This document shows positions 15,797-43,757 of a DNA stretch of 64,000 nt, piece after piece. The stretch comes from Candidatus Poribacteria bacterium (lineage in GTDB: Bacteria; Poribacteria; WGA-4E; WGA-3G): assembly GCA_963663765.2 (NCBI GenBank), contig CAXXUA010000015.1:320001-384000 (forward strand). The letters run 5' to 3'. Each line of letters starts with the position of its first letter. Position 1 is the stretch's first letter. The notes beneath the pieces are model-generated. The model was not told where the DNA came from. It searched no databases and saw only the letters and a list, made by a program, of their open reading frames with translations. Both the position numbers and the translations under genes were made by a program.

Positions 15797-16086
15797 GGGT
15801 GTTTAAAGTTTTTTGCGTGCAGAATCACGGATTACACGGATTTCGCGGAGTGCGCGGATAAGATACCTGCATGAGTACGTATCGCATATATGATGTTGGT
15901 ATAATCAATTAGACCTGAGAATGTAATCTTTTCTGTGCTATCGGTGAAATCCTTGGAATACATTTGGGTGTATGCTATTGGAAGAAGACGCGTGTGGTAT
16001 TTGACTCACTATGATTCCTGCAGTTGATTTGGTGATACTGACAACCCAACGATCCAGACAACACCCTGCCAAAACTTTACACATCC
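15797..16086. mobile_element. MITE-like element, GGGTGTGTAAAGTTTT-ended family
   Basis: IRs GGGTGTTTAAAGTTTT / AAAACTTTACACATCC (14/16); contains CACGGATT short repeats near 15826-15860. Confidence 0.5.
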
Positions 16087-16094
16087 GGTTTTGA

Positions 16095-16146
16095 CTGGGT
16101 TATTTAGTTTTAAGATTCTATCGTTATACAAGTTAACTTTGGGTTA
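16095..16146. mobile_element. Remnant end of an ISAs1-family element
   Basis: CTGGGTTATTTAGTTTTAA...CAAGTTAACT matches the IS end at 26856-26900 apart from a few changes. Confidence 0.65.
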
Positions 16147-16181
16147 AGATTAGTGAAATATATACAGAACTTAAGCAAAAA

Positions 16182-16250
16182 CGGTAGGCGTGCTTTGTAA
16201 GCGCGCTCTTGGGACTTGATGTACCAGCGCGCTTACAAAGCACGCCTACC
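16182..16250. repeat. GTAG-type REP doublet (REPIN-like hairpin)
   Basis: GGTAGGCGTGCTTTGTAAGCGCGCT ... AGCGCGCTTACAAAGCACGCCTACC, 25-bp perfect IR, preceded by a degenerate MITE end CAGAACTTAAGCA. Confidence 0.8.
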
Positions 16251-16286
16251 AGGGTAGGTTAGATAAAATTACCTAATTAATTTTTT

Positions 16287-16332
16287 AATCTTCATTAAAT
16301 CCTGGTTCAAATCTTCATTAAATCCTGGTTCA
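16287..16332. repeat. 23-bp tandem duplication
   Basis: AATCTTCATTAAATCCTGGTTCA x2. Confidence 0.9.
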
Positions 16333-16433
16333 AACAAAGAATGAGCTAACTCCCAAAAATAAACTAACTCAAGGATTAACAACTGTGATAGAATTTATTC
16401 AATAAAATGAAAACTGAATAACACTGCGGTTCT

Positions 16434-16753
16434 GAGTGTGTGAAAAGTTTTTGTAGAAACCCTGATATAATAGTGGCTTTTAGAATTATTTTTGCACATT
16501 CAGGTGTAGGAGGGAACTCCGATTCCCGACTATCAAGGCGTTCAGTCGCGATTCGGAGTTCCCTCCTACAGAACAAGTGCAAACTTAATTGTATATTTCA
16601 CTATAAAAGAAGTATCTAAAGTTTCTATCAAAGCTTGCTTGACGTTAGGGAACTGTGGACATCGTAGAGGCGAGGTTTCCTCGTCTGCGTAAAACCTCTG
16701 TTCGGGCGGGGAGACCCCGCCCCTATGCACAGTAACCAAAACTTTACACACCC
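16434..16753. mobile_element. MITE-like element (GGGTGTGTAAAGTTTT family) containing two REP doublets
   Basis: Ends GAGTGTGTGAAAAGTTTT / AAAACTTTACACACCC, both flanked by CGGTTCT; internal GTAGGAGGGAACTCCGA...TCGGAGTTCCCTCCTAC (16506-16569) and GTAGAGGCGAGG...CCCCGCCCCTA (16664-16725). Confidence 0.6.
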
Positions 16754-16770
16754 CGGTTCTGATACGAACA

Positions 16771-16799
16771 TTGACAATATCAGTAATATGTGCTATAAT
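16771..16799 (+). promoter_or_regulatory. Consensus sigma70 promoter upstream of rhodanese-moeB
   Basis: TTGACA-N17-TATAAT with extended -10 TG; palindrome TTCAAG-N6-CTTGAA at 16803-16820 over the predicted start site. Confidence 0.75.
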
Positions 16800-16854
16800 C
16801 TGTTCAAGATATTACTTGAATCCCTTGCTAAATTATACCAATTCAAATAAATCT

Positions 16855-16970
16855 TGTCTCATTAAGGAATTCTACTGTTTACTGGCAGGGGGTTACTCTC
16901 CTCGGTAGGAGCGACCTCCCGGTCGCGACCGTGATGTCGCTCCTACCAGATTTCCGCTGCTAATGAGACA
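16855..16970. repeat. Nested inverted repeat with REP hairpin in the moeB leader
   Basis: TGTCTCATTA / TAATGAGACA enclosing GGTAGGAGCGAC...GTCGCTCCTACC (16904-16947). Confidence 0.65.
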
Positions 16971-17080
16971 TTATCACATGAAAATGGTATTACCAAGTAT
17001 GATTAGAGTGTATCAAACAAAAAATAGTCTTCAGTATGTGAAATTGAGTTTAAAAAGAGATTAATTTGGAGAACAATAAT

Positions 17081-18268
17081 ATGAAATCGTATAGAGAGAT
17101 CGTAGAGGAGGCAAAAACTGAAATCCCAGAGGTGACTGTTGCTGATGTGAAAGTTGAGCAGGAGCAAGGGAGTGACTTTGTGCTTCTGGATGTACGTGAT
17201 GAGGATGAATATCGGGCTGGATATATTCCAGATGCTGTTCACGTTACCCGCGGAATGTTGGAATTTTCTGTTGAGAATTATATTCCGGACAGGGATAAAA
17301 AGGTTGTGGTTTATTGTGCTGCAGGACTTCGTTCACTGCTTGCAGCAAAATCGCTTCGTGAAATGGGGTATACAGATACTGTATCTATGGCAGGTGGTTA
17401 TCGTGATTGGACAGCAGCTGGGTTACCTACAGCACAAGATAAACCGATGTCACATGAACAACTTGACAGATATAGCAGACATTTTATGTTAACCGAAGTC
17501 GGTGAACAAGGTCAGGCAAAGTTGCTGGATGCAAGGGTTTTACTTGTCGGTGCTGGTGGGTTAGGGTCTCCTGCAGGTGTTTACCTTGGAGCAGCTGGAA
17601 TTGGTCACATGGGTGTTATAGACTCTGATGTGGTGGAGTTAAGCAATCTACAACGCCAGATTCTACACCGCACTGAGGCGGTCGGTACACCAAAGGTTCA
17701 ATCTGCAACAACGACCATAAAATCACTAAATCCGGATGTTGAGATTACACCGTATAACCTTCGTTTGACCGCAGACAATGTTGAAGAGATCTTTTCTGAA
17801 TATGACCTGATTGTTGATGGGTGTGATAACTTTGCTACACGTTTCCTTGTGAATGATGCAGCAGTGTTTATGAATAAACCGATAGTACATGGCAGTATTT
17901 TTCAGTTTGAGGGACAGGTTACTTTGTTTAAACCGAATGAAGGTCCGTGTTACCGATGCATGTATCCGACTCCGCCGCCACCCGGTTTGGTTCCAAGCTG
18001 AAGTGAAGCAGGTGTCCTGGGCGTGCTCCCAGGTGTAATTGGTGTGATGATGGCAACGGAAGCGATTAAGTATATCATCGGTATTGGTGAACCGCTTATT
18101 GGTAGACTTATACTTTATGAAGCACTCAGTATGACCTATCGCGAGATGAAAGTTCCTCGTGATGAGAATTGCCCGATCTGTGGTGAGAATCCGAGTATAA
18201 CAAAACTCATAGACGATTATGATGCGGCTGCGGAGAATCCTGAAACTTTTGCACCCGCTGCTGATTGA
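17081..18268 (+). CDS. moeB: Rhodanese-MoeB/ThiF fusion adenylyltransferase, probable selenoprotein (TGA at 17999-18001)
   Basis: Rhodanese YCAAGLRS; ThiF RYSRH, GAGGLGS, SNLQRQ, CYRC; reads PPPPGLVPS-TGA-SEAGVLGVLPGVIG in frame through to CPICG; GGAG RBS before ATG 17081. Confidence 0.88.
18016..18033 (+). promoter_or_regulatory. Putative bacterial SECIS hairpin
   Basis: CCTGGG-CGTGCT-CCCAGG stem-loop; the loop starts 21 nt after the UGA and has GU at loop positions 2-3. Confidence 0.65.
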
Positions 18269-18297
18269 TAATAGGTGAATTTCAGTTTAGGAACTTA

Positions 18298-19395
18298 ATG
18301 TCAAAAAATTTAAGTACCCAAGAACCGGAAATACTTAGCTTTTCCGACATCCCGATTGAACCCTTTCCGGACCGAAGCACACGCTGGTTGTTCGAAGACA
18401 AAGAGTACGTCCGGGGCCTGGTAGACATCCTTGCAAGCGAATTGGCGGCGTGTATTGATTTCAGTCGCTTATCGCAAATTAACAGGAGTTTTATACCCGA
18501 CACGTTACGCGAGCAAGAGTCTGATATGGTGTTTACCGCGCCGTTTCAGACTGAATCTGGAACAGATGAGCTGTTAATTTATATCCTCATTGAACATCAA
18601 TCCACGGTTGACCCGATAATGGGTTTCCGGGTGCTGTTTTACATGATGCAGATTTGGGATTTCCAACGTAGAGGATGGGAGTCTGAGAATGTGCCCAAAA
18701 GTCAGTGGCGTTTCCGACCAATCCTCCCAATTGTGTATTATACAGGCGAAAAGCGATGGAGTAACCCACTTACACTTGATGCGATAATAGATATGCCGGA
18801 TGTGCTCGCGAGGTTTGTTCCAAAATTTGATATGCTGTTTCTCAGTGTTAATGATACCGATGTAACGCACCTAAAGGAAACTGACCAGCCATTAGGGTGG
18901 TTGTTAACAGTTCTTCAAAAGGAAAATGCGGACGAGGAAACGCTAATTGATGCATTGCTTGATACGTTTTCACACTTCGACACACTGGAAGAGGAATACG
19001 CACCACAGCGGCGTAAAGCGATGATCTATCTCATCTTGTTCATACTACATCGCCGCCCTCCTGAAGAACACAAAAATTTGATTACACTCATTGATCAGAG
19101 AACACACGATATGGAGGTAGAAACCATGGCACAATCAATCATTGAAATTACCAAAGAAGAAGGTAGAGAAGAAGGAAGAGAAGAAGGTAGAGAAGAAGGA
19201 AGAGAAGAAGGTAGAACACAAGCAAAACGGGAGTCAATCATAAAACTGATACAATCCCGATTTGATGTTCTCCCTGAGGCTGTTGCCACTGAGATTGATT
19301 CGATACAGAGTCTTTCCCACCTCGATTCGATCTTTGATAAAGCATTGACCGCAGAAACAATTGATGAAATTGGGTTGCAAAACAACGACAAGTAA
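18298..19395 (+). CDS. Rpn/YhgA-family PD-(D/E)XK nuclease (recombination-promoting nuclease / putative transposase)
   Basis: SFIPDTLREQESDMVF, YILIEHQS, PIVYYTG, C-terminal (EEGR)5 repeat; AGGA RBS before ATG 18298. Confidence 0.92.
   Translation: MSKNLSTQEPEILSFSDIPIEPFPDRSTRWLFEDKEYVRGLVDILASELAACIDFSRLSQINRSFIPDTLREQESDMVFTAPFQTESGTDELLIYILIEHQSTVDPIMGFRVLFYMMQIWDFQRRGWESENVPKSQWRFRPILPIVYYTGEKRWSNPLTLDAIIDMPDVLARFVPKFDMLFLSVNDTDVTHLKETDQPLGWLLTVLQKENADEETLIDALLDTFSHFDTLEEEYAPQRRKAMIYLILFILHRRPPEEHKNLITLIDQRTHDMEVETMAQSIIEITKEEGREEGREEGREEGREEGRTQAKRESIIKLIQSRFDVLPEAVATEIDSIQSLSHLDSIFDKALTAETIDEIGLQNNDK
19126..19395 (+). CDS. Putative intragenic small protein (RpnS-type antitoxin), 89 aa
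   Basis: GGAGGT at 19113-19118, 7 nt before in-frame ATG (MAQSIIEITKEEGR...). Confidence 0.6.
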   Translation: MAQSIIEITKEEGREEGREEGREEGREEGRTQAKRESIIKLIQSRFDVLPEAVATEIDSIQSLSHLDSIFDKALTAETIDEIGLQNNDK

Positions 19396-19425
19396 TACAA
19401 TTAAATAGTGAAACAGAAGCAGTGG

Positions 19426-19981
19426 ACCTAAAGGAAACTGACCAGCCATTAGGGTGGTTGTTAACAGTTCTTCAAAAGGAAAATGCGGACGAGGAAACGC
19501 TAATTGATGCATTGCTTGATACGTTTTCATACTTCGACACACTGGATGAGGAATACGCACCACAGCGGCGTAAAGCGATGATCTATCTCATCTTGTTCAT
19601 ACTACATCGCCGCCCTCCTGAAGAACACAAAAATTTGATTACACTCATTGATCAGAGAACACACGATATGGAGGTAGAAACCATGGCACAATCAATCATT
19701 GAAATTACCAAAGAAGAAGGTAGAGAAGAAGGTAGAGAAGAAGGTAGAACACAAGCAAAACGGGAGTCAATCATAAAACTGATACAAGAGAAGAAGGTAG
19801 AACACAAGCAAAACGGGAGTCAATCATAAAACTGATACAATCCCGATTTGATGTTCTCCCTGATGCTGTTGCCACTGAGATTGATTCGATACAGAGTCTT
19901 TCCCACCTCGATTCGATCTTTGATAAAGCATTGACCGCAGAAACAATTGATGAAATTGGGTTGCAAAACAACGACAAGTAA
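19426..19981 (+). pseudogene. Near-identical duplicate of the Rpn C-terminal half, frameshifted
   Basis: Repeats 18869-19395 with a few substitutions, two fewer 12-bp EEGR units and a 53-bp tandem duplication (19735-19787 / 19788-19840); internal ATG 19683. Confidence 0.85.
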
Positions 19982-20011: not shown

Positions 20012-20562
20012 ACCTAAAGGAAACTGACCAGCCATTAGGGTGGTTGTTAACAGTTCTTCAAAAGGAAAATGCTGATATAGAAGCACTAAGCAAAGCCTTG
20101 TTTGATGCGGTGCCGCACGTTAAACATCTACGTAAGATGATCGCTTATTTGGTCTTGTTAATTTTACATCGGCGACCTGCTGAAGAACATAAGGACTTAA
20201 TACGACTTGTTGAACAACAGTCACACAATATAAAGGTAGAAAATATGGCAAGAACAATGGCAGAAGTTCTCATAGAACAAGGCTTTGTAGAAGGCTATGC
20301 AAAAACCATAGCTGAAAGTGTAGCAAAGGGTATAGAACCAAATTTAGCACATGGTGTAAAGCTTGGCATAGAGCAAGGTAAAATCTTAGCAAAACAGGAA
20401 AACATTATCAAAGTACTATACTCCCGATTTAGTGCTATTCCTGATCCTGTTAGAAGCAAGATTCACTTGATACATGACATTGCTCGCCTTGATACTATTT
20501 TTGACAAAGCATTGACCGCAGAAACAATTGATGAAATCAAGCTGCAAAACGACGATAGTTAA
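20012..20562 (+). CDS. Divergent Rpn C-terminal cassette; probable small ORF from ATG 20245 (105 aa)
   Basis: Shares about 60 bp with rpn, diverges, then reconverges at FDKALTAETIDEI; AAGGT before ATG 20245 (MARTMAEVLIEQG). Confidence 0.65.
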
Positions 20563-20612: not shown

Positions 20613-23288
20613 ATGCCGAAAAAACCTATTAACCATTATGAACATACCGACAAACTACCCAATAACCCGACCCAAGAACTGAGCGGTTTTGCTGAAAACG
20701 ATGACTTTGCACCGACACGATACCCGCGCGATGTTGCACTTGACCCGCAATTAGTTTGGAAAGGCAAAGACCAACAGAACGATGCCGATCTTGAGGTGCC
20801 AGCAGTCCCTATCTACATTTAGGAACATATTCAACCGCAAGCTATTAGTGAAGTACTTCGCGCACAACAACAGAAAGAATCGGAACAAATCGGAACGCTT
20901 TTTGAAGGATTCAACGACCTTGACTTTGAGCAGAAAATTGAGTTTTACCAACACGAACAGAACTGGCATAACCGCTTTATCCTTGGCGATTCACTTGCTG
21001 TGATGAACTCTCTCGCCGAAAAAGAGGGATTTAAAAATAGTGTGCAAACTATCTTTTTTGACCCGCCTTATGGTATCAAATTTAGCAGTAATTGGCAGGT
21101 TAGCACCCGAAAACGTGAAGTCAGCGATACAAAAGCAGAAGACGTTACGCCACAACCCGAACAAATTAAAGCATTTCGGGATACATGGAAAAACGGCATC
21201 AACTCTTACCTCACCTATTTACGTGATCGACTTACAATTGCCCGTGAATTGCTCGCGGATAGTGGTAGTATCTTTATCCAAATTAGTGATGAGAACGTTC
21301 ATTTTGTTAGGTGCTTGTTAGATGAAGTGTTCGGAGATACCAATTTTGTTAACACAATCACCTGGACTCGAGGTGGAATGACTTCTTCAGAAGGGTTAGC
21401 TGCAATCTCTGATTATCTGTTATGGTATGCAAAAGACAAAGAACAAATGAAGTACCGTCCTCTTTGGATAAAGTGGGATGAACACACACCAGACCCACTC
21501 TTAAGACATCACACACAAGTTGAATTTCCAGATGGAACACGGCGCAGAATGACGCAAGCAGAAAAAGAAAATCCAGCGTTATTGCCTCAGGGAATAAAGC
21601 GATTTCGAGAATCTCAAGCAACATCACAGACTGCTGGTAGTGCCACCTTTGAGTATGAATTTGAAGGTAATATTTTTATACCTCCCCGTGGAAGAGGTTG
21701 GGCATCAAACCGTGAAGGACTAAACCTTCTTGCTAAGCAGGGAAGACTTGTCAAATCAGGACAGAGAATCAATTACATTCGATACGCTGGCGATTTTCCG
21801 GGACGTGCTATGACCAACATGTGGACAGATACCTCACGTGGAGGTTCTGGAAAAACCTACATTGTAGAGACAAACCCGACAGTTATCCAAAGGTGCATGC
21901 TCATGACAACAGATCCAGGGGACTTAGTCCTCGATCCAACTTGTGGCAGCGGCACAACCGCTTATGTCGCAGAACAGTGGGGAAGACGTTGGATAACAGT
22001 AGATACTTCAAAGGTAGCACTTGCGTTGGCACGTACCCGCCTCATGTCTGCCAAATATCCTTACTATCGCCTTCAAGATGCAGACGACATCAAGAAGGGA
22101 TTTGCCTATAAAACTGCACCGTATGTTAGTCTTTCAGATATGGCAAATAACACAGAGATTGACGACATCCATGCAGAATACGCAGAGAAATTAGATCCGC
22201 TCCGTGCCGAAATGAATCGCCTTCTTGAACAAAATTGGGAAGAGTGGGAGGTACCAACTGAAACCGATACGGAATGGGATACGGAATTTCAGGAACTTCA
22301 TCGTAAATGGCTTGTCCTCAAACGCGAACGACAATTAGCGATGGATGCCTCCACTGCAAAACGCGCCAAAAGTGAGACACTTTACGATCAACCTTATGTG
22401 GATAGAAAACGGGTTCGCGTCACAGGTCCATTCACGGTAGAGAGTTTATCCCCGAATTTTGCTCTTGAGCAAACCGATGCAGAATCCCAAACGTCAATAT
22501 CTTCTGAGAGTGTACAAGAGTATCACCAACATATCATAGAACATCTCAGAACAGCGGGCATACAAAGTGGTTTCAAAGATCAAGGTATCAATTTTGACTG
22601 GATAGAAGAATATCCAGGCGAATGGGTTCATGCTGAAGGCATGTGGGTTGACAAAGAGGAAAAACAACATCACATTGCTATCAGCATTGGTCCACAGTAT
22701 GATACGGTGGGTAAACAGTGGATACGTGAAGCAGCGAAGGAGGCTGTCCGAAAAATCGCAGAATATGACCTACTTATTGTGGCGGGAATCACATTTGAAT
22801 GTTATACTGCTAATGAGGTATCACGAATTGGCCAATTGCCGATACTGCCAGTCAAAATTAGTCCTGAGTTAATGGTGCGTGAACTCAAAAACACGGGTGA
22901 GGGCAATCTGTTTATGGTGTTCGGCGAACCGGATGTGGACATTGTAGAGAATAAAGATGGCACAATCTCTGTTAAACTCTTGGGTGTGGATGTATACGAT
23001 CCTGTGAAGGGGTTACTCCGTTCGGAAACGCCAGAGGACATCGCGTGTTGGTTCATTGATACCGCTTACAACGGCGAGGCGTTTATCGTGCGGCATGCAT
23101 ATTTTACGGGTGAAAACGAACCTTACAAGCAGCTGCAAAAAGCACTCAAAGCAGAAATTAACGAGGAGGCGTGGGTGGCACTATATCGGACAGAAAGCAT
23201 CCCATTTACCAAGCCTGAGTCTGGTAAAATTGCAGTGAAGGTTATCAATCATTATGGTGACGAGGTGATGAAAGAGTATAAGGTTTAG
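20613..23288 (+). pseudogene. Type III RM-like N6-adenine DNA methyltransferase (Mod) interrupted by in-frame TAG at 20820-20822
   Basis: DPQLVWKGKD, VPIYI-TAG-EHIQP, NRFILGDSL, DPPYGI, LDPTCGSGTT, KIAVKVINHYGDEVMK, all in one frame. Confidence 0.85.
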
Positions 23289-23316
23289 ACAAATAGCGTC
23301 AACACGGAGAGAGAAA

Positions 23317-24678
23317 ATGATTACACACATACGAATGAAAAACTTCAAGTCGTGGAAAGATAGCGGTGAAGTTCAACTTGCGCCGTTGACAGGCTTTTTC
23401 GGTACAAATAGTTCTGGGAAGAGTAGTTTGTTGCAAATGCTGCTACTGCTTAAGCAGACAACGGAGCAGGAGAATACCGAAGAAGTTATCTTCTTTGGAA
23501 ACAACGGCTCTTATGTCAATTTAGGTAATTTCCATGAAGTGATTCACGGTCATAGTCAAGAAAATCATCTTGAGTTGGAGTTTGGATATAAACTTCACAA
23601 GACTTATAGTCTTCGATGGAATGTAACGGATAAAGAACCGTGGGAATCAAGAATAGATCGGTTTGCATTTAATACAGTGATTTCTAAAGCAAATGGGAAA
23701 GTAGATGTAAAGAACTTTTCATATGCTGATTCTTCCGGAAGTTGGAAAATTGCCTGGTACATTAAGGAAATAAAGAGATCGGTATATGGCGGTCCCTTAT
23801 TCATTAACGAAGATAGTTTAGGATACGGACAAGTGACAAACTGCTACGGTACTCCAACAACAAAGGATATAGGCTCGTATCAAAGACCAGAGAAAGAATA
23901 TATAAAATTTTTCTCACAACTTTTTGAAAAATTGTTTTTGAATCTATATTATCTTGGACCAACTCGTGTGGATCCACGACGAGACTATAATTGGCAAGGT
24001 ATGCATCCTGAGCATTCTGATCGATGGGGAGATAAAACAATTGACGCGCTTCTCTCTGCGCGTGTGCGAAATTTGAAAACCTCTCATAAGAAAGAAGATG
24101 TTCCAATTGAGGGAAGAATTTCAGATTGGTTACAAAAGATGGACTTAGCCCATTCGTTCTCGCTTAATTGGATAGAAGCACAGGGCAGCAAAACCTATGA
24201 AGTCCGTATCCAAAAAACTCAATCAAGTCCACTTGTTACATTAGTTGATATGGGTTACGGTTTATCTCAATTCTTACCAGTGTTAGTCCTTTGCTACTAT
24301 GCACCAGAAGGTTCAACCTTAATTTTGGAACAACCCGGTATTCACCTTCATCCAATGGTTCAATCCCAACTTGCGGATCTGCTGATAGAGGTTGTCAACG
24401 AAAGGAACCTGCAGATTTTGGTGGAAAGCCACAGTGAACATCTGTTAACTCGTTTACAAAGACGAATCGTCGAAGAAAAGATTGCTGCAGATCAGACTGC
24501 ATTCTATTTTTGCCGTAACAATGATGGTGCTTCCACTATTGAAAAATTAGATGTAGACGAAGCGTCTGGGGATATCAAGAACTGGCCAGAAAACTTTTTC
24601 GGTGATGTGATGGGTGATATGTTTGCGATGACAGACAAACAGGTCGAAAGCATAGCAGAAAAGAGAACGGAGGGTTAA
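23317..24678 (+). CDS. ABC-type (AAA_15/21-like) ATPase with DUF3696-like C-terminus, copy 1
   Basis: Walker A GTNSSGKS, signature-like GYGLSQ, Walker B LILEQP, ESHSEH, terminal NWPENFFG. Confidence 0.88.
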   Translation: MITHIRMKNFKSWKDSGEVQLAPLTGFFGTNSSGKSSLLQMLLLLKQTTEQENTEEVIFFGNNGSYVNLGNFHEVIHGHSQENHLELEFGYKLHKTYSLRWNVTDKEPWESRIDRFAFNTVISKANGKVDVKNFSYADSSGSWKIAWYIKEIKRSVYGGPLFINEDSLGYGQVTNCYGTPTTKDIGSYQRPEKEYIKFFSQLFEKLFLNLYYLGPTRVDPRRDYNWQGMHPEHSDRWGDKTIDALLSARVRNLKTSHKKEDVPIEGRISDWLQKMDLAHSFSLNWIEAQGSKTYEVRIQKTQSSPLVTLVDMGYGLSQFLPVLVLCYYAPEGSTLILEQPGIHLHPMVQSQLADLLIEVVNERNLQILVESHSEHLLTRLQRRIVEEKIAADQTAFYFCRNNDGASTIEKLDVDEASGDIKNWPENFFGDVMGDMFAMTDKQVESIAEKRTEG

Positions 24679-25196
24679 TGGACGCAGTTGTGATTGATAC
24701 GAACGTTTTAGTAGTCGCAAATGGCAAGGCTGCTGCGCCGCAGGCATCCGATAAATGCATCAAACTCTGTCGCGCAAAGCTTGCAGCAATACTTAGAAGT
24801 TCCGAGAAGATATTACTTGATGACAAAAAGCGAATAATTCGAGAGTACAGAAGGAACCTAAATGACAAAGGACGTGGACACGGAGATCGGTTTTGGCTGG
24901 AATTAAAAAGAAGATTTTATAATCCTAAAAGTTATCCTGATACGGTTGTCACGGTTGAAATTACCACGTTAGCAGGAAACGGCACTGAATTTGAGGAATT
25001 TCCTAATGATGACGCGGCACTAAGCGATTTTCATAAAAAAGATAAAAAATTTGTTGCTGTTGCCATTGTTTACCAACGCGACTTTGAAGATGAAGCACCT
25101 ATCCTAAAAGCAGAAGATAGGGGTTGGGATGAATTTAAAACCGCCCTGGCTGCTCATCGTGTTTACGTTCATGCTATCTGTGAGGACAACACCTAA
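24678..25196 (+). CDS. PIN-domain protein (putative RNase), copy 1
   Basis: VVIDTNVL, IREY, DKKFVAVA, EDRGW acidic set; TAATG coupling to the ATPase. Confidence 0.75.
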   Translation: MDAVVIDTNVLVVANGKAAAPQASDKCIKLCRAKLAAILRSSEKILLDDKKRIIREYRRNLNDKGRGHGDRFWLELKRRFYNPKSYPDTVVTVEITTLAGNGTEFEEFPNDDAALSDFHKKDKKFVAVAIVYQRDFEDEAPILKAEDRGWDEFKTALAAHRVYVHAICEDNT

Positions 25197-25333
25197 AGAC
25201 CTTTTGATATAAGATAACGTTGGAACACTGTTATGCAGAGACCTATAAAAAATCTTGCACCGTGTGCTAAATGTGCGTCTATCCTACTTAATTGTCTGAA
25301 TCGCGAATTATACCGATCATGAGGAAAGGAAAA

Positions 25334-26656
25334 ATGATTACACATATACGAATGAAAAACTTCAAGTCGTGGAAAGATAGCGGTGAGGTTCAACTTGCCC
25401 CGTTGACGGGCTTTTTCGGGACAAATAGTTCTGGGAAGAGCAGTCTGTTGCAGATGCTGTTATTGCTTAAGCAGACAACGGAGCAGGAGGATGCGGAAGA
25501 AGTTATCTTCTTCGGTAATGAAAATTCCCTTGTCAATCTTGGTTATTTCCATGAAGTTATTCATGGGCATCAAGAGGATGAAGAACTTGAGTTAGAGTTT
25601 GGGTGTAAATTCCCAGAATCAATGACAATCAGAATCACCCAATATAGGCTGGAGCCAGATGAAGTTAAATTTGATTCTTTCAATTTTGAGACTACTATCA
25701 AGAAATATGGTAATTCACAGGATGTCAATCGTATTTGTTACGATATCGGAGGAAAGGGAATTAATAAAATAAAGTTAGAAGGTAACGAAATTTCCTATTG
25801 TGGCAAACGCCTCTTCACGGGTACTTATAAAAACTGCTATAGTATAGAAGAGACAACGCAAGCTTTTCCAGGTTCAAACGAATCATTTTACTTGCTTTCG
25901 TCTAAATTTGAGGAGCTTTTTTCACATGTTTTTTATCTGGGACCAACCCGCAAACATCCACAACGCTACTATCATTGGGAGGGTGATTTTCCTGAAACTC
26001 CCGGACAGTGGGGTGGTCAGACAATTGATGCTCTTCTCTCCGCTCGTATAGATCAGCGAACGACCCCTTATAAAGCAAAAAATGTCCCAATTGAGGAACG
26101 AATCTCAGCATGGTTGCAAAAAATGGAATTAGCGTACGCCTTTGAATTTGCACGGAGCGGTCCACGGGATAACAAAAACTATGAATTCCGAATCCAAAGG
26201 GGGCCGAAAAGTATTAAAGTGACATTGGCAGACATAGGTTATGGAGTTGCACAATTTCTTCCTGTTCTGGTTCTGAGTTATTATGTTCCGATCGGATCCA
26301 CGCTGATCCTTGAAGAACCTGGGACTCATCTTCATCCCAAAGCACAAGCTGACATCGCAGATCTCTTGATAGAGGTTGTCAATGAACGGAAACTACAGAT
26401 TTTAGTAGAAAGCCATAGTGAACACCTGTTAACTCGCCTGCAACGAAGAATTGCAGAAGAAAAGATTAGCAGTGAACAAACTGCCCTCTATTTTTGTCGG
26501 AACAATGAAGGCGTTTCTAATATTGAACGTTTAGAAATGGATGAATTTGGTAACATAGAAAACTGGCCAGAAAACTTTTTTGGCAATGAGATGGGAGATC
26601 TGTTCGCAATGACTGATGCGCAAAGGGAACGTCAAAAGAGTGCGGAGGGTGAATGA
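25334..26656 (+). CDS. ABC-type ATPase with DUF3696-like C-terminus, copy 2
   Basis: First 52 aa identical to copy 1; same motifs; AGGA RBS before ATG 25334. Confidence 0.88.
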   Translation: MITHIRMKNFKSWKDSGEVQLAPLTGFFGTNSSGKSSLLQMLLLLKQTTEQEDAEEVIFFGNENSLVNLGYFHEVIHGHQEDEELELEFGCKFPESMTIRITQYRLEPDEVKFDSFNFETTIKKYGNSQDVNRICYDIGGKGINKIKLEGNEISYCGKRLFTGTYKNCYSIEETTQAFPGSNESFYLLSSKFEELFSHVFYLGPTRKHPQRYYHWEGDFPETPGQWGGQTIDALLSARIDQRTTPYKAKNVPIEERISAWLQKMELAYAFEFARSGPRDNKNYEFRIQRGPKSIKVTLADIGYGVAQFLPVLVLSYYVPIGSTLILEEPGTHLHPKAQADIADLLIEVVNERKLQILVESHSEHLLTRLQRRIAEEKISSEQTALYFCRNNEGVSNIERLEMDEFGNIENWPENFFGNEMGDLFAMTDAQRERQKSAEGE

Positions 26657-26855
26657 ACGCTGTTATTGTAGATACGAATGTAATCGTGATTGCAAATGGT
26701 GTTGCACAACATGCCTCTGCAGACTGTATAGAACGTTGTCAGGATAGACTTGAGCAGATTTTCAACCATCATGAAATCGTTGTTGTTGACGACAGATGGC
26801 GAATTCTTGGGGAGTACAATCGTCATACAGACCCAAACTCCCGAAAAGGAATTGG

Positions 26856-28170
26856 CAGGGTTATTTAGTTTTAAAAACTCTCAGTTATCAAGTTAACTGC
26901 GAGTTTAGGTTTTGAAGCTAAGTATTTTATCTCATCTGCTATACGCGTTATCCCAGCAAATCGCAACACTGCTAATGCTGTATTTCGCAAAGCAGCCATG
27001 ATTTGTGGAATAGCACCGCATCGGACAGACGATGCGTCTTCTCCAAGTTGTGTATCACGCATCCAATGCGACTTGTTCTCTATTGACCAATGCCCACGGC
27101 GTAGCTCAAGTAAACGTTGGGCAGAAGTTTCTTCGGGTGTCAGACTTGTAATACCATAATGGATTTTGGTTTTTTCTTCTCCTGTTTTCGTATTTTTGTA
27201 AGTATAACGATATTGGAACACTTGTGCTATACCTGGCCAATCCAGATATGCGTTGAGACTTGTGCTTGCTTTCAAACACCTTGTCTCTATTCTACCATGT
27301 GATTTTTCAGAAGTCTCGTGAGTGTAAATAGGGGCTCCCAATTTAGGATGTGGTGTGTTATCAGAAAGCGTGTCTGGAACGTCTTGAAAGAGTTTTTGGA
27401 TCTCATCGTAAAGGTCCGGTTGGTTCTTTTTGACAGGGAGCACATAGTCTCCATTACCCTCTATGATGGCGTGGCAGAAAGGTCGCTGTGTCAAAAGTGC
27501 GTCTGTTGTGATGACTTTACCACTCACATCAAAGTTTTTGAGGATCTCTGTTGAGATCGGTATTTCGTTGGTTTTATCACTGACACCTTTTTGTGTAAGT
27601 GTGACGCCTAACTCATGAGACACAACAGAGAGTAAATGGCTTATTGTCGCACCACTTTTCTTACTGGCACGCATCGTTTTACCGTCTATAGCGACTGCGT
27701 CAAGACAACCTTCTAAATCAGGTCGACTTTGACAAACGTCTTCTACCCAGTCTGTAAATGTCTTTTCAACAGCATCAGCATCTAAATCTTTTAGAACATT
27801 ATGTATTGTTGCGGGACAAGGTGTTTTCTTGTGTGTAAAACCGAGTGTTCTTGCGAGGTCTGGTTGGGTTCGGGCCCAAGTTGCGATGGATGTATATCCT
27901 TTATGTCCAGTCATAAAACCAATAATGTTAAGTCCGATGATTGATTTCAATGGGTGTCGTTTTCCTTTATTGTTGCGCGGGTCTTGGATTTCTGCTAATC
28001 TATCTAACAAGTGTCGAGAGTTTTTCTCTGGCATTTTTCACCTCAAAGGTAAGATTTTTTAGGTGAAGTATAGCAGATATAGCGCGATAAATCACGCTAT
28101 ATCTGCATATCCAAAAATATTAACGATTGTGATAAAAAACAACCAAAACTCCTAAAACTAAATAACCCTG
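26856..28170 (-). mobile_element. ISAs1-family insertion sequence, 1315 bp
   Basis: 18-bp perfect IRs CAGGGTTATTTAGTTTTA; 9-bp target duplication AGGAATTGG (26847-26855, 28171-28179). Confidence 0.95.
26871..28034 (-). CDS. ISAs1-family DDE transposase
   Basis: DPR..GKRH, AIDGKT, KTNEIP, TTDALLTQ, VKKNQP, HGRIETR, RGHWSIEN..HW.RD..GED. Confidence 0.96.
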   Translation of the reverse strand: MPEKNSRHLLDRLAEIQDPRNNKGKRHPLKSIIGLNIIGFMTGHKGYTSIATWARTQPDLARTLGFTHKKTPCPATIHNVLKDLDADAVEKTFTDWVEDVCQSRPDLEGCLDAVAIDGKTMRASKKSGATISHLLSVVSHELGVTLTQKGVSDKTNEIPISTEILKNFDVSGKVITTDALLTQRPFCHAIIEGNGDYVLPVKKNQPDLYDEIQKLFQDVPDTLSDNTPHPKLGAPIYTHETSEKSHGRIETRCLKASTSLNAYLDWPGIAQVFQYRYTYKNTKTGEEKTKIHYGITSLTPEETSAQRLLELRRGHWSIENKSHWMRDTQLGEDASSVRCGAIPQIMAALRNTALAVLRFAGITRIADEIKYLASKPKLAVNLITESF

Positions 28171-28509
28171 AGGAATTGGTGATATGTTTGTAAAAATGCT
28201 ACTGCGAAATCAGAAGAACCCGAATGTCTGTACAATGGTGCATATTACCTCATTAGCAGGAAACGGGACCGATTTTGAAGAATTTCCTACTGACAATGCC
28301 TTATGCAGTTTTGACCCAGACGATAGAAAATTCATCGCTGTTGCCCTTGCACATCAGCGAGACGCTGAAGAAACCCCAACTATTTTATTAGCAATAGACA
28401 GAGGTTGGCTTGAATTTATGTCCGCGCTGGCAAGCCACGGAGTCACCGTTGACCTTATCTGTAAAAAAGACATCCAACGTCCACGTCAAGATTAAAAGAA
28501 GGTATTCAA

Positions 28510-31500
28510 ATGGCAAAAGTCACTATAGAAAATCCTGTTATCAACAGTCCTTTTGAGAAACCGCAACGACATTTTGTCTTTACACAGCGCGGGATTACTG
28601 AGGATATTGAAGAAGGAAGACGTCAAAGTGAATACTTTATCCCGATGCCGAAACCGAAAAAACAGTCACAGGACGCGCAAATGAAACTTCTTCCCGACCC
28701 AGAAGTACGGGAGGCGAACATGTTTATAAACAGAGTGCGTGCCCAAGTAACAGCATGGAGGAACAATGGTTATCCTGGTGTAACCCCAACAACAAGACGT
28801 TTGCTTGAATATTGGAACAAGCCTGAAAACGAACCACGTCTCTTTTTCTGTCAACGCGAAGCAGTGGAAACCGCTATCTATCTGAATGAATGTGAAAACA
28901 AAAATCGCAGTGATTCATTCCATAAACAACTTTTGACTGCGAACAATGAAGCAAACCCTGATCTATACCGAGTTGCATTCAAGATGGCAACGGGCTCCGG
29001 TAAAACGGTAGTAATGGGAATGCTTATCGTGTATCACACGTTGAACAAAAGAGTGAATTCCCGAAGCGAACGTTATGCTGATGCATTTCTTATCGTCACA
29101 CCTGGTGTAACAATTCGTGACCGTTTGCAGGTACTCCTTCCTGAAAACCCTGAAAACGACTACCAAAAAATGAATTTATTACCTCATGGGGACTATGATA
29201 CTCTCTGTCAAGCTAAAATAGCGATTACAAATTATCACGCTTTTCAAACTAGAAAAAAGGAAAAATTGAGCAAAGTAAGCGAACAAGTTCTCGGAAAAGA
29301 GAGTGCAAATAATTTCAGAGAAACTCCAGATGAGATGGTTGTGAGAGTCTGTCGTAGTCTTGGTAGAAAGAAAAACATAATTGTTATGAATGACGAAGCA
29401 CATCACTGTTTCCATCGAAAAAATGATACGGAATCTGAGTTAACGCAGGACAATCCGCGTTTATGGATAAGTGGACTTGATGCTGTGAAAGCAAAAATCG
29501 GTATTAAAACCGTTTACGATTTATCTGCAACACCATTCTTTCTGAGCGGTTCGGGGTATTCAACCACTACCCAGAGTGGAAAGAAACTCAAAGAAGGTGT
29601 TCTATTTCCGTGGGTCGTATCAGATTTTGCATTGATAGATGCAATAGAAAGTGGCATCGCAAAGGTGCCGCGCGTTCCTGTTGCAGACGATACAATGGCA
29701 AGTGATCCGATTTATCGCCGCCTGTGGGACATCGTTGGAACGAAACTTAAAGGAATAACAACCGATGGGGAACCGCAGCTGCCACAAGAATTGGAGACAG
29801 CACTCCAAAGCCTCTATACCAATTATGAAAAAGCGTATGACTTATGGCAGAAAAACCCACACGGATTGACACCGCCTGTCATGATAGTTGTTTGCAATAA
29901 CACAAGGGTATCCAAACTTGTTTACGATTGGATTGCCGGATGGGAAAAAGTAACTACTGATGGAGAAAAGGTAATAGAAAAAGGAAATTTGCCGATTTTC
30001 AACAATGAGGAGAACGGTGAGTGGAGTGAAAAGTTAAGCACATTGCTTATTGACAGCAAACAGTTGGAGTCTGGTGAGGCATTAAAAGGCGAGTTTAAAA
30101 AAGCCTCCAAAACACAAATTGAACAGTTCATGCACAAGATGAACGTAGAAAAAGTTACAGATGAGGATTTGTTACGTGAAGTGCTAAATACTGTTGGAAA
30201 AAAGGATAAACTTGGCGAAAAAATTAAATGTGTTGTGTCAGTATCCATGTTAAGTGAAGGATGGGATGCAAGGCGGGTAACGCATATCCTTGGCGTACGT
30301 GCATTTAGTACACAGTTGCTCTGTGAACAGGTTGTCGGGAGAGGTTTGCGCCGTTCTACTTATGATGTCGAAAAGACAACTATCCAAATTAACGAAAATG
30401 AGATAAACTTGGAAACTTTTCCGCCAGAATACGCTGAAGTTTATGGGGTACCGTTCTCATTTATCCCTGCCACTGGTAGTGGGAAGGCAATACAACCTAA
30501 TCCTGTGACAGAAGTTAAGGCGTTACCTGAAAGAAAGGCAAAGTGCGAAATCACATTTCCGAGACTTGTTGGCTATCATCCGTGCCTCCCATCTGAAAAG
30601 TTGGATGCCAATTTTACTGAAGATTCTCGCTATGAGCTTTCTACAGCAGAGATTCCGTCACGTATAGAAATTGAGGCAATTACTGGCTCGGTAATAGAGG
30701 TTGAATCACCTTATCTGAAGAAGTTCCGACTGCAAGAAACCGAGTTTTACCTTGCCAAAGTACTTATGGATAATTACTTATGTGACACTGAGAAAGATGC
30801 GAAATGGTGGCTTTTTCCAGAACTGCTTCGTATCACGCGGCGATGGATGAAAGACTGTGTTACCTATAAAGACAACACACATCCCCAGTTTTTTCATATT
30901 GGCGAAATCGCACGGAAGGCGGCATTTCGGATTCACATGGGAATTCTCAACGCAGAAAAACAATCTGAAAACGAAGATTTTAAAAATAATGGTTCAGAGA
31001 AAACATTCATCCCGATTTTTTCCCAATCCTCTCGTCTTAAAGGGCGTACGGGTTCAACGACAGATGTCCTATTTGAAACCTCACGCCCCACATGGGAAAC
31101 AAAACCTGACAAATGTCACATTTCGCATGTTGTAGCTGACACAGAATCTTGGGAGCAGAAGACCGCGCAAGCACTGGAGCAAATGGATGAGGTAGTTACT
31201 TATGCCAAAAATCACAATTTGGGTTTCACGATTCCATGCATCAATCACAACGGGGAAAGTCGTCAATATGTTCCTGACTTTATCACCCGCATTCTAAGCG
31301 GAGAGAGCGGTTCCACTGATGGTAATGTCAACCTGATTCTTGAGGTCTCTGGCATGCCGAGGGAGGATAAAGTTCAGAAGGTCAACACGATCAAAAATAT
31401 GTGGTTACCAGCAGTGAACGGTAGTAGCGAGTTTGGAAAATGGGATTTTCTTGAAATCACCGATCCGTGGAACATACAAAACACTATCCGCCAATATCTA

Positions 31501-31518
31501 AACCTAAATGCGGCGTAA
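28510..31518 (+). CDS. Type III-like restriction endonuclease subunit (Res; SF2 helicase plus PD-(D/E)XK nuclease)
   Basis: FFCQREAVET, MATGSGKT, DEAHHC, SEGWD, QVVGRGLRR, C-terminal YVPDF...ILEV. Confidence 0.9.
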   Translation: MAKVTIENPVINSPFEKPQRHFVFTQRGITEDIEEGRRQSEYFIPMPKPKKQSQDAQMKLLPDPEVREANMFINRVRAQVTAWRNNGYPGVTPTTRRLLEYWNKPENEPRLFFCQREAVETAIYLNECENKNRSDSFHKQLLTANNEANPDLYRVAFKMATGSGKTVVMGMLIVYHTLNKRVNSRSERYADAFLIVTPGVTIRDRLQVLLPENPENDYQKMNLLPHGDYDTLCQAKIAITNYHAFQTRKKEKLSKVSEQVLGKESANNFRETPDEMVVRVCRSLGRKKNIIVMNDEAHHCFHRKNDTESELTQDNPRLWISGLDAVKAKIGIKTVYDLSATPFFLSGSGYSTTTQSGKKLKEGVLFPWVVSDFALIDAIESGIAKVPRVPVADDTMASDPIYRRLWDIVGTKLKGITTDGEPQLPQELETALQSLYTNYEKAYDLWQKNPHGLTPPVMIVVCNNTRVSKLVYDWIAGWEKVTTDGEKVIEKGNLPIFNNEENGEWSEKLSTLLIDSKQLESGEALKGEFKKASKTQIEQFMHKMNVEKVTDEDLLREVLNTVGKKDKLGEKIKCVVSVSMLSEGWDARRVTHILGVRAFSTQLLCEQVVGRGLRRSTYDVEKTTIQINENEINLETFPPEYAEVYGVPFSFIPATGSGKAIQPNPVTEVKALPERKAKCEITFPRLVGYHPCLPSEKLDANFTEDSRYELSTAEIPSRIEIEAITGSVIEVESPYLKKFRLQETEFYLAKVLMDNYLCDTEKDAKWWLFPELLRITRRWMKDCVTYKDNTHPQFFHIGEIARKAAFRIHMGILNAEKQSENEDFKNNGSEKTFIPIFSQSSRLKGRTGSTTDVLFETSRPTWETKPDKCHISHVVADTESWEQKTAQALEQMDEVVTYAKNHNLGFTIPCINHNGESRQYVPDFITRILSGESGSTDGNVNLILEVSGMPREDKVQKVNTIKNMWLPAVNGSSEFGKWDFLEITDPWNIQNTIRQYLNLNAA

Positions 31519-39403: not shown

Positions 39404-40234
39404 ATGCTTGAAGCACAAGTAACAGAGTCATCTTCGCAAATCCGACAGCAGATGCGGGAATTCTACGAAACATCAGAATCCTACAAGAATCTCTTGTCTG
39501 CACATGACGAAGAATATCTACAAGCCTATGTTAACTTGGTCATCCGTTTTGCGCCATCAGGTTCCAAGATTTTAGATCTCGGTTGTGGAAATGGGATTTC
39601 ATCCCGCATGTTAAACCAAGCATGCTATGATGTAGTAGGGACCGATATTTCAAAACTCTTTCTTGAAGAAGCTCAAGAATGGTGTAATGAAAAACTACGA
39701 TACCAAGTATGTGATGTTTTGGAACTACCTTTTGATAATGATTCCTTTGATGTTATTTGTTCAAACGAACTGATTGAACACCTTCCAGATGTGGAAACTG
39801 CATTGAAGGAGATGATTCGAGTAGTTCGAAAAGGTGGAAGGATTGTACTTTCAGGTCCAAATCTCAGTTCTCCCTTAACACCATTTCTCGACTGGTTTCG
39901 TTTGATGTGTGGTAAAGAGGGTAGATCTATTTGGGGAGAAACAAAAAAGCAAGCATTTCAACAATTAATATACAACTTTAGACTTTATATACGAAAACGA
40001 TTATTAACAAAACATCCAAAATTCATTTATCGTGAACCAGAACTCCAGAACGTTGCTATTGGTGGTGATGCTGATAGTGCTTATTATGCAAATCCTATTG
40101 ATATTGCGCAGTTTTTTAAGTTACATGGTGTAATTATAGAAAAAAAAGCTGTAGGTTTTGGTTTTAAAGGGAGGATTGTTGCTAATATGTTCCCATATTT
40201 GAGTCCTTACATTACTATGGTTTTACAAAAATGA
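39404..40234 (+). CDS. Class I SAM-dependent methyltransferase
   Basis: [25 protein letters not shown]. Confidence 0.9.
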
Positions 40235-41070
40235 ACATCCGTTCAAATGATTTTGTATTAGAAATAGGAAGTGGTCATAATCCAAATATACGTTCAGATG
40301 TATTATGTGATAAATTCATTGATGATGATGAACAACGCGGAGGAAAGATCGTCACTGATAGACCGATTGTAGAAGCAGATGGACAGTTTTTACCTTTTGC
40401 AGATAATTCATTTGATTATGTAATTTGTTTACATGTATTAGAACATGTTGAAGATCCAGAGTACCTACTTTCTGAAATGATGCGAGTATCCACCAGAGGA
40501 TATATTGAAACTCCATCTGAAGTAGGTGAGTTGATCTATGGTTGGCCTTATCATAACTGGATTGTTAACGCTGTTGATGGTAAGCTTGTAATTAGAGAAA
40601 ACGAAAAGAAAGCTGCATTCGGTCAACTTTTTCATACTTTGGCTGCACAGGATAAGTATTGGAGAAAGTTTCATATCATGCACCATCGTCTGTTTCTTGT
40701 GCAATATGAATGGGAGAGTAAAATTGAATATGAAATTATGGAGCAAACGGAATCACCATTGAATTTGAAATGTCCCCAAACCATTGAAGATTTATTGTCA
40801 TCTCCTCACTTAAATGAAAATAATGATCAATTATTAGTAACTATAAAAAGTTTGGTGCCTCGAGATCTTGTTTCACCTATAAAATCACTTATATCTAAAA
40901 GTAGGAGACGAAATAGGAAAACACTAAAAGAGATTCTCGTTTGTCCAAAGTGTAAGGACGAAATTGTTTGGCAAGAAAACAAAATTCATTGTAAGAATTG
41001 TGAACAGGACTACCCAATTATTGATGGAATCCCGAGATTAGCAATTACACCAGAATTTAGACATAAGTAG
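40231..41070 (+). CDS. Methyltransferase-domain protein fused to a Trm112-like zinc ribbon
   Basis: [19 protein letters not shown]; C-terminal LVCPKCK...CKNC...[10 protein letters not shown]; ATGA overlap with the upstream gene. Confidence 0.8.
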
Positions 41071-41100
41071 TACATTTAACCTAAATTTTCATAATAATTC

Positions 41101-42066
41101 ATGGATACTATGAAATCAAATAACATTGAAAACAGAGATATTGTGATAATAGGAGGAGGAACTGCGGGTTTTGCAGCGGGTGTATATACATCACGTGCAA
41201 TGTTGCAACCAGTTCTATTAACTGGAGACGCACTTGGTGGTCAGCTCTCCTTAACACTTGACCTTGAGAACTATCCTGGCTTTTTTGGTACTGAAGCATC
41301 TGCGTTTATTCAAGGAATGCAGGAACAGGCTGAACGATTTGGAACTGAAGTTAAATTTGATACTGTTACTGATGTTGATTTCGCGACGCATCCGTTTGTA
41401 GTTAAGTCTTATGAAAAAGAGTACCATGCAAAATCTGTGATTATTTGTACTGGTGCTTCTCCACGCACTTTAGACATTCCTGGGGAAGAAGGGTATGGTG
41501 GACGTGGTGTATCTTATTGTGCGACTTGTGATGGGTTTTTCTTTCAAGACCAACGGCTTATCGTTGTTGGTGGAGGAGACGCAGCATTGGAGGAAGGAAT
41601 TTTTCTCACCAAATATGCATCTGAGGTATTTGTAGTTCATCGTCGAGATCAACTCCGTGCTAGCCAAATTATGCAAGAACGAGCATTCAAAAACGATAAG
41701 ATCAAATTTATTTGGGATACCGTTGTTGAAGAAATTTGCGGGGATGACGATAAGGTAACTGGCGCGAAACTCAAGAATATCAAGACAGACGAAACTGAAC
41801 TATTCCCAATTGATGGTGTTTTTATCTTTATAGGTCATATTCCAAATACCGAACTATTTACCGATGTTATAGACATGGATGATCAGGGGTATATCATTGT
41901 TGACAGTATGCAACGGACTAATATAGACGGTGTTTTCGCAGCGGGGGATGTGCATGACCATGTGTTCCGCCAAGCAATTACTGCTGCTGGTGCAGGAGCG
42001 GCAGCTGCAATTGCATCTGAAAAATTTGTTGCCGAATTGGAAAACCGAACATATCCTGGGAATTAA
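41101..42066 (+). CDS. trxB: Thioredoxin-disulfide reductase
   Basis: GGQL, GRGVSYCATCDG, VGGGDAALEE, HRRD, FAAGD, RQAITAAG. Confidence 0.95.
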   Translation: MDTMKSNNIENRDIVIIGGGTAGFAAGVYTSRAMLQPVLLTGDALGGQLSLTLDLENYPGFFGTEASAFIQGMQEQAERFGTEVKFDTVTDVDFATHPFVVKSYEKEYHAKSVIICTGASPRTLDIPGEEGYGGRGVSYCATCDGFFFQDQRLIVVGGGDAALEEGIFLTKYASEVFVVHRRDQLRASQIMQERAFKNDKIKFIWDTVVEEICGDDDKVTGAKLKNIKTDETELFPIDGVFIFIGHIPNTELFTDVIDMDDQGYIIVDSMQRTNIDGVFAAGDVHDHVFRQAITAAGAGAAAAIASEKFVAELENRTYPGN

Positions 42067-42084
42067 TTTTGTAGGTCTTATTCT

Positions 42085-43722: not shown

Positions 43723-43757
43723 CAGTGATGTAAATAAAAAATACTGTTTGAAACATT

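Follow-up and report, generated by a model that had tools for sequence, protein, structure and literature searches.

An in-frame UGA at the crossover-loop cysteine of a Poribacteria rhodanese-MoeB gene: a probable selenoprotein annotated as two genes

The 64-kb stretch of Candidatus Poribacteria DNA analysed here (contig CAXXUA010000015.1, positions 320,001 to 384,000; hereafter the window) carries at 17081-18268 a gene for a rhodanese-MoeB protein, in whose reading frame a single UGA codon occupies the place of a conserved cysteine. We conclude, with a probability that we put at roughly 0.88, that this is one gene encoding a 395-residue, selenocysteine (Sec)-containing rhodanese-MoeB in which UGA307 is decoded as Sec. 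An initial annotation of the same DNA had called the gene a probable selenoprotein, and the call is now supported by the recurrence of the TGA codon across three phyla, by purifying selection on the frame downstream of it and by the standing of MoeB as a listed Sec family. The result amounts to an annotation fix within a known selenoprotein family rather than to a new class of system, and what is new is limited to the membership of Poribacteria together with relatives from Entotheonella and Nitrospinota, evidence for repeated switching between Cys and Sec, and the selenocysteine insertion sequence (SECIS)-like character of the sequence that codes for the loop. It also bears on what selenium gains in sulfur-carrier activation, as the proposed Sec occupies the position of the E1 crossover-loop nucleophile, the thioester-forming residue of Uba4.

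A single frame annotated as two genes

All coordinates follow the numbering of the window, plus strand. An ATG at 17081 opens a frame in which TGA at 17999-18001 (codon 307) is the sole interruption before the end at 18266-18268, as expected from the initial proposal that two open reading frames (ORFs) are one. Under translation table 11 the two are called as 17066..18001 (311 residues from TTG, 306 from the ATG) and 18023..18268 (81 residues from GTG), and read-through gives the 395-residue product. The peptide at the break runs ...PPPPGLVPS-TGA-SEAGVLGVLPGVIG, which with Sec at residue 307 would read ...GLVPS-U-SEAGVLGVLPGVIGVMMATEAIK. Codons 1-306 (17081..17998) encode, according to the translation, domain matches and invariant alignment columns, the rhodanese domain, the beginning of the ThiF/MoeB adenylation domain and a first CxxC pair; codons 308-395 (18002..18265) encode, according to the translation, Pfam and alignments, the remaining ThiF/MoeB domain (Pfam match to residue 365, nucleotide 18175), a second CxxC pair and a C-terminal tail. 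The true stop at 18266..18268 is TGA in the window and TAG in a close relative, locus L001 of contig CBDCOJ010000031.1. Public protein sets hold the gene and its relatives as a 306-residue "ThiF family adenylyltransferase" and a 72-81-residue "hypothetical protein", which is the split mis-annotation that had been foreseen. Pathway reconstructions for Poribacteria and other sponge-associated lineages therefore carry a broken MoeB and would miss its selenium requirement.

The terminal TGA is directly followed, in frame, by TAA and then TAG, giving the window a triple stop (TGA-TAA-TAG, 18266-18274) against the single TAG of L001; this arrangement may protect the end of the gene from being read through in a host that decodes Sec, or may be due to chance.

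The read-through frame matches the curated NCBIfam model for molybdopterin-synthase adenylyltransferase MoeB (NF006444/PRK08762) with 537.5 bits against a cut-off of 449, over residues 5-384 and model positions 4-383 of 387, and passes that cut-off only with the TGA read through. Pfam places a Rhodanese domain (PF00581) at residues 26-112 (17156-17416) and a ThiF domain at residues 131-365, the latter match crossing the TGA. In an alignment of 19 proteins the rhodanese active-site C79 (17315-17317, within CAAGLRS), G82, R84 and S85 are invariant, as are the GAGGLGSP motif and C290/C293 of the first CxxC (17948-17959). The defining features of PRK08762, namely the active-site Cys loop of the rhodanese, the Gly-rich nucleotide-binding motif and two CxxC pairs, are all present. 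Because this match is full-length and above the cut-off, the rhodanese-plus-MoeB layout is a known one and not peculiar to this gene: the N-terminal rhodanese domain singled out in the initial annotation is there, but it belongs to the ordinary architecture of a curated family. Cys-containing PRK08762 members share with the window gene the domain order, the rhodanese CxxGxRS loop, GAGGLGSP and the two CxxC pairs, and differ in having TGC or TGT at codon 307 where the window gene has TGA; the name of the model mentions no selenoprotein form. The second pair, C364/C367 (18170-18181), aligns with C244/C247 of E. coli MoeB and lies in the downstream part, as had been supposed. A pair of this type is said, in the MoeB structure paper, to bind zinc.

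TGA stands in for a conserved cysteine codon

HMMER comparison with solved structures sets residue 307 opposite C187 of E. coli MoeB (LTCVEAGV), C184 of ThiF (RNCRTAGV) and the cysteine of SCGEAG in Chaetomium Uba4. A pattern scan of genome contigs with two generic peptide patterns supplied DNA-level relatives; the 80 loci are the matches listed, most of them distant Cys forms, with L001 the only close relative among them. A scan of these loci and of the window picked up the loop motif in 79 sequences, namely the window and 78 loci (L063 and L073 remained unmatched). At the Cys site 66 of the sequences have TGC, 9 have TGT and 4 have TGA. Those with TGA are the window itself, L001 from Candidatus Poribacteria (95% amino acid identity), L002 from Candidatus Entotheonella (61%) and L003 from Nitrospinota (58%). 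At the protein level, column 307 of the 19-protein alignment is Cys in 11/11 full-length relatives, and 7/7 truncated relatives end at residue 306. The placing of the in-frame TGA (17999..18001) at the conserved MoeB cysteine thus agrees with every full-length relative aligned and with the 75 of 79 DNA sequences that carry TGC or TGT.

Protein databases show the same break on a larger scale. Among the 120 matches listed in a protein search, 33 are 306-307 residues long, and these are exactly the ones with identities of 73-93%; the remaining 87, of 388-507 residues, are full length and at most 65% identical. The missing C-terminus recurs as separate ORFs of 72-82 residues in 43 clusters (P0122-P0164; 75-95% identity), some of them named Candidatus Poribacteria and some lying on contigs of matching size, and the 306-residue form occurs in clusters as large as 104 members and on contigs that reach 6.6 Mb. 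In the 150 best 50%-identity representatives of a library of 1.84 billion proteins, 11 end just before the Cys site, 10 recognised by script and P0282 by eye, the latter being the only one evaluated of 60 rows without an exact PCYRC anchor. The homologue alignment suggested in the initial annotation as a check of Cys/TGA pairing and TGA conservation therefore came out in its favour, with TGA in L001, L002 and L003 and truncation in 33/33 clusters at ≥73% identity. By these comparisons, the pairing of TGA with Cys exceeds chance.

The distribution of the two forms was followed on a quick IQ-TREE phylogeny of the 306 residues before the site. Its 118 rows comprise the window, the 78 loci and an arbitrary choice of 18 of the 33 truncated and 21 of the 87 full-length proteins, for which Sec labels were inferred from truncation. 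Twenty Sec rows, including the window and L001, form one clade with a Shimodaira-Hasegawa-like approximate likelihood ratio (SH-aLRT) support of 99; L002 lies inside a clade with 100% support together with six Cys forms, and L003 is set apart from two proteins of the Cys type, among them P0059, which a source names Nitrospinota. For both L002 and L003 the nearest neighbours on the tree are Cys forms. The labels need at least three changes on the tree, and the starred branches force at least two, so that Sec and Cys have been exchanged more than once within the subfamily, with Sec appearing fixed in the Poribacteria-like clade.

Purifying selection beyond the UGA codon

Between the window and L001, 180 of 395 codons differ, 162 of them synonymously and 18 non-synonymously (163 synonymous if the TGA/TAG stop is counted), and beyond codon 307 the differences are 29 synonymous and 3 non-synonymous. 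The seven codons that separate the TGA from the first in-frame ATG, GTG or TTG encode S/N-EAGVLG; over these codons (+1 to +7) the window differs from L002 by 5 synonymous and no non-synonymous changes, and from L003 by 4 and 1. The first possible restart codon itself differs among the TGA sequences, being GTG at +8, TTG at +9 or GTG at +12. Comparison of these frames indicates purifying selection beyond the TGA from the first codon on, and the near-purely synonymous codons +1 to +7, together with the shifting restart position, therefore speak against a stop with re-initiation further on, as well as against a pseudogene.

These results bear on a truly split gene, in which translation would stop at the UGA at 17999 and restart at the GUG/AUG codons of 18043-18051 or at GUG 18023, the resulting chains of 306 and about 73-81 residues assembling non-covalently. 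Such an arrangement could draw on the Shine-Dalgarno-like AGGUG at 18031-18035, 7-10 nucleotides before GUG/AUG/AUG at 18043-18051, and on the fact that gene callers give two ORFs here as well as in the relatives. We nevertheless regard it as highly improbable, as codons +1 to +7 (SEAGVLG, part of the most conserved loop of the family) change almost purely synonymously across three phyla, the first possible restart codon varies, and the break coincides with the Cys codon in 4/4 TGA-type DNA sequences, so that the crossover-loop residue itself would be lost. A premature stop arising in a pseudogene, or from a sequencing or assembly error, would fit a lone in-frame stop in an otherwise intact gene with mobile and defence genes adjoining; it is effectively refuted by the same TGA in L001, L002 and L003, the same truncation point in 33 clusters, and the 29 synonymous against 3 non-synonymous downstream differences.

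The longest near-unchanged stretch of the gene between the window and L001 covers 21 codons with one difference (codons 311-331, nucleotides 18011-18073) and starts four codons past the TGA, a length reached in only 5/2000 permutations. This conservation provides an independent hint of constraint at the RNA level, drawn from a single sequence pair, and may equally be due to a conserved restart signal of a split gene.

A SECIS-like hairpin downstream of the UGA codon

Decoding of UGA307 as Sec would call for a bacterial SECIS (bSECIS) element close downstream, and a candidate upper stem-loop is present at 18016..18033, identified by folding and by a SECIS-like test. It consists of a 6-bp stem, CCUGGG/CCCAGG, whose arms lie at 18016-18021 and 18028-18033, and a 6-nucleotide loop, CGUGCU (18022-18027). 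The hairpin had been described in the initial annotation as starting 21 nucleotides downstream; stem and loop are as stated, but it is the loop that begins at the 21st base after the UGA, the stem beginning at the 15th, and the spacing is 20 nucleotides. Published constraints on bSECIS elements, as given in the legend of Fig. 2 of PMC13188914, are an apical loop of 3-9 nucleotides, an upper stem of 4-16 bp, a G in the first two loop positions, a distance of 16-37 nucleotides from the UGA and a minimum free energy of at most -7.5 kcal/mol. We applied these constraints with a simplified script of our own, distinct from bSECISearch. The window hairpin passes (6-nucleotide loop, 6-bp stem, 20-nucleotide spacing, -11.8 kcal/mol), with G18023-U18024 supplying the G within the first two loop positions, and 4/4 TGA sequences pass with it; the fit to bacterial SECIS geometry claimed earlier thus holds, though the test is a weak one. 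RNAalifold of the four TGA-type sequences gives a consensus structure at 18003..18048, in which a GU-rich lower stem (18008-18013 with 18038-18043) lies beneath the upper stem and overlaps the conserved codons 311-331.

The two more distant TGA loci each carry their own version of the hairpin downstream of a TGA at the same Cys site. In L002 (10916-10978 of that locus, on a Candidatus Entotheonella chromosome) the codons that form it differ, its 3' arm lies one base off and its loop is AGUUUUG; in L003 (2105-2167, from a Nitrospinota metagenome-assembled genome) it has an 8-bp stem and a GUCC loop.

Evidence weighed against Sec decoding

Several results weigh against the conclusion that UGA307 is read as Sec, and a first group of them concerns the hairpin. 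The SECIS-like test is also passed by 33/75 Cys-type loci and by 779/2000 synonymous recodings (39%) of the window's 17 downstream codons, among which the -11.8 kcal/mol of the native sequence falls only at the 19th percentile; the fold of an 81-nucleotide segment has a z-score of +0.88, and of the 15 pairs in the four-sequence RNAalifold structure 2 show a compensatory change, with a covariation term near zero (+0.56). An Rfam search of 17900-18200 at a permissive threshold returned only three weak and irrelevant matches, to mir-12 and to two snoRNA families, none of them near its gathering score. After the recoding and Cys-form controls, hairpin stability was dropped as a line of evidence, and the hairpin alone is weak evidence, no more than chance. 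It is largely a by-product of coding, because the GVLGVLPG codons are conserved and the loop G-U comes from a Val codon.

A second group concerns the decoding apparatus and the sampling. The 64-kb window, which has no tRNA genes and no Sel families among 42 ORFs, yielded no selA, selB, selD or tRNA-Sec, nor was any Sec machinery found in the 10-kb flanks of L001 and L002 (Pfam on 29 ORFs; the tRNA scan, made on L001 only, gave none). The window also yielded no second candidate selenoprotein gene among TGA-joined frame pairs with at least 45 residues on each side or among TGA-bounded extensions of long frames, the other candidates resembling shadow frames when judged by eye. In the truncated proteins (33 clusters and 11 representatives) TGA is inferred from the truncation point. 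Finally, E. coli MoeB is reported to stay active when C187 is mutated, in which case not every MoeB would have to depend on the loop residue for catalysis.

The hairpin controls nevertheless suggest a tentative, and on balance doubtful, evolutionary idea. As the GVLGVLPG codons are SECIS-like in 44% of Cys forms, and the loop G-U from the Val codon lies about 20 nucleotides after the Cys codon, the MoeB crossover loop might be primed for Sec: in a Sec-competent host a single change from TGC or TGT to TGA might be readable as Sec at once. This would explain at least two to three switches within the subfamily (in the Poribacteria-like clade, Entotheonella and Nitrospinota) as well as the fixation of Sec throughout the Poribacteria-like clade, which might then contain the first E1-like enzyme to work through an acyl-selenoester.

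Decoding of UGA and relation to known Sec-MoeB

TGA ends 7 of the 38 window frames of at least 200 codons, one of these being the N-terminal part of the MoeB gene, and the other long ORFs of the window are unbroken and fit their families when read with table 11. Genome-wide reassignment of TGA to a sense codon (codes 4 or 25), for which nothing specific to the window speaks, is therefore excluded: TGA serves as an ordinary stop here, including as the true stop of the gene itself.

Recoding confined to UGA307 might still insert something other than Sec, namely Cys delivered by a SelB-dependent tRNA of the tRNA-ReC (selC*) type, or a residue from near-cognate read-through. tRNAs of the selC*/tRNA-ReC type are described as decoding such UGA codons in some bacteria (PMC13582414), homologues carry Cys at the site, and the window holds no tRNA gene by which to choose between the options. 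We consider such recoding very unlikely, as MoeB is already classed as a Sec family in the literature cited below and as TGA is kept across a clade extending down to 73% identity although one substitution would turn it into TGC or TGT, which is hard to explain if the product contained Cys. Sec decoding would presuppose selABCD in the genome. A Sec-type group 4 hydrogenase reported from Poribacteria (PMC13582414) lends indirect support to the view that Sec is decoded by members of the phylum.

That Sec-MoeB is not new, and is known from marine surveys, had been pointed out in the initial annotation, and the literature bears this out. The Sargasso Sea survey (Zhang, Fomenko & Gladyshev 2005, PMC1088965) introduced MoeB as a new family of selenoproteins and counted 11 sequences of it; the 2008 Global Ocean Sampling (GOS) analysis counts 19 Sec against 2,262 Cys MoeB sequences (PMC2398784), reviews of 2022 and 2026 include MoeB in their selenoprotein lists (PMC9312934, PMC13188914), and a study of Olavius lists it as a family undetected there (PMC1976440). 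The published family (COG0476 / pfam05237 / PF00899) and the window gene have in common the MoeB type, an in-frame TGA, Cys homologues and an origin in marine microbial communities. The published tables name the family and leave its motif column as "-", and the likeness to the window gene accordingly rests on the family description rather than on Sec position or architecture; the Sec site of the window gene is likely identical with that of the published family. In the portions of the Sec-MoeB literature covered, Poribacteria, Entotheonella and Nitrospinota are not named as hosts, a direct check (for "Poribacter") being limited to PMC13188914.

Proposed role of Sec307

A catalytic role for the Sec may be proposed by analogy with Uba4, where the crossover-loop cysteine C202 forms a thioester with adenylated Urm1 and the rhodanese persulfide attacks that thioester to yield a thiocarboxylate (PMC7527816). 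In the window protein, SelB carrying Sec-tRNA(Sec) would bind the hairpin at 18016-18033 as the ribosome reaches the UGA at 17999-18001, and Sec would be delivered in place of termination. The adenylation domain of the full-length product would then adenylate the C-terminal glycine of a sulfur carrier, probably of the MoaD/ThiS/Urm1 kind, and Sec307, at the position of Uba4 C202 in the crossover loop, would attack the acyl-adenylate to form an acyl-selenoester. The persulfide of rhodanese Cys79 would resolve the selenoester, and the carrier would be released as a thiocarboxylate that supplies sulfur for molybdopterin or in a related transfer. With selenium, the loop residue would attack more readily as a nucleophile and would also depart more easily as a leaving group. 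At the corresponding position of ThiF, C184 forms an acyl-disulfide with ThiS.

Among characterised systems, Uba4/MOCS3, the eukaryotic activator of Urm1 (PDB 6yub, 6z6s), resembles the window protein in combining an E1-like adenylation domain and a rhodanese domain in one chain. The two differ in that the rhodanese is C-terminal and the loop residue Cys in Uba4, whereas the rhodanese is N-terminal and the loop residue a proposed Sec in the window protein. The adenylation domains of E. coli MoeB (1jw9) and ThiF (1zud/1zfn) align over residues 123-370 with E-values of about 1e-57 to 1e-59, including the CxxC pairs, but these proteins are without a rhodanese domain and have Cys at the loop. No MoaD/ThiS-like carrier gene adjoins the gene in the window, L001 or L002, where small ORFs were not specifically searched. 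No report in which selenium was tested at the crossover-loop site in this enzyme family turned up, no literature search having been aimed at that question.

Genomic neighbourhood

The gene is preceded by about 1.3 kb (15800-17080) in which no long ORF is found and which contains several long, near-perfect GGTAGG...CCTACC palindromes. These are one with 25-nucleotide arms that are 100% complementary (16183-16250), one with 27-nucleotide arms at 93% (16505-16570) and one with 22-nucleotide arms and no spacer (16904-16947); a 23-nucleotide tandem duplication lies at 16287-16332. The palindromes may represent elements resembling repetitive extragenic palindromes (REP) or miniature inverted-repeat transposable elements (MITE).

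Directly downstream, at 18265-19395, lies a gene of the Rpn family of recombination-promoting nucleases/putative transposases (TIGR01784), followed by two shorter paralogous fragments at 19422-19829 and 20044-20562. The gene and both fragments carry EGREEGREEGR repeats, and none of the three is present at the syntenic place in L001. Compared with L001, the adjoining region, 21000-31518, resembles an inserted defence or mobile island. One of its products, of 762 residues, contains a segment like the adenine methyltransferase CcrM. Two AAA ATPases, whose MAD3-like matches are weak, each precede a 172-residue ORF, and such ATPase pairs are present in L001 as well. The island further holds an ISAs1-family transposase on the minus strand (26871-28034) and, at 28510-31518, a restriction endonuclease of the BPTD_3080 family (1041 bits). 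In the window and in L001 alike, PotB/PotC permeases come next.

At 39404-44252, 21-26 kb downstream of the MoeB gene, are two adjacent S-adenosylmethionine (SAM)-methyltransferase genes, thioredoxin reductase TrxB (41101-42066), a sugar-kinase-like gene and MoaC (43758-44252), the last of which shows that the organism makes molybdenum cofactor precursors.

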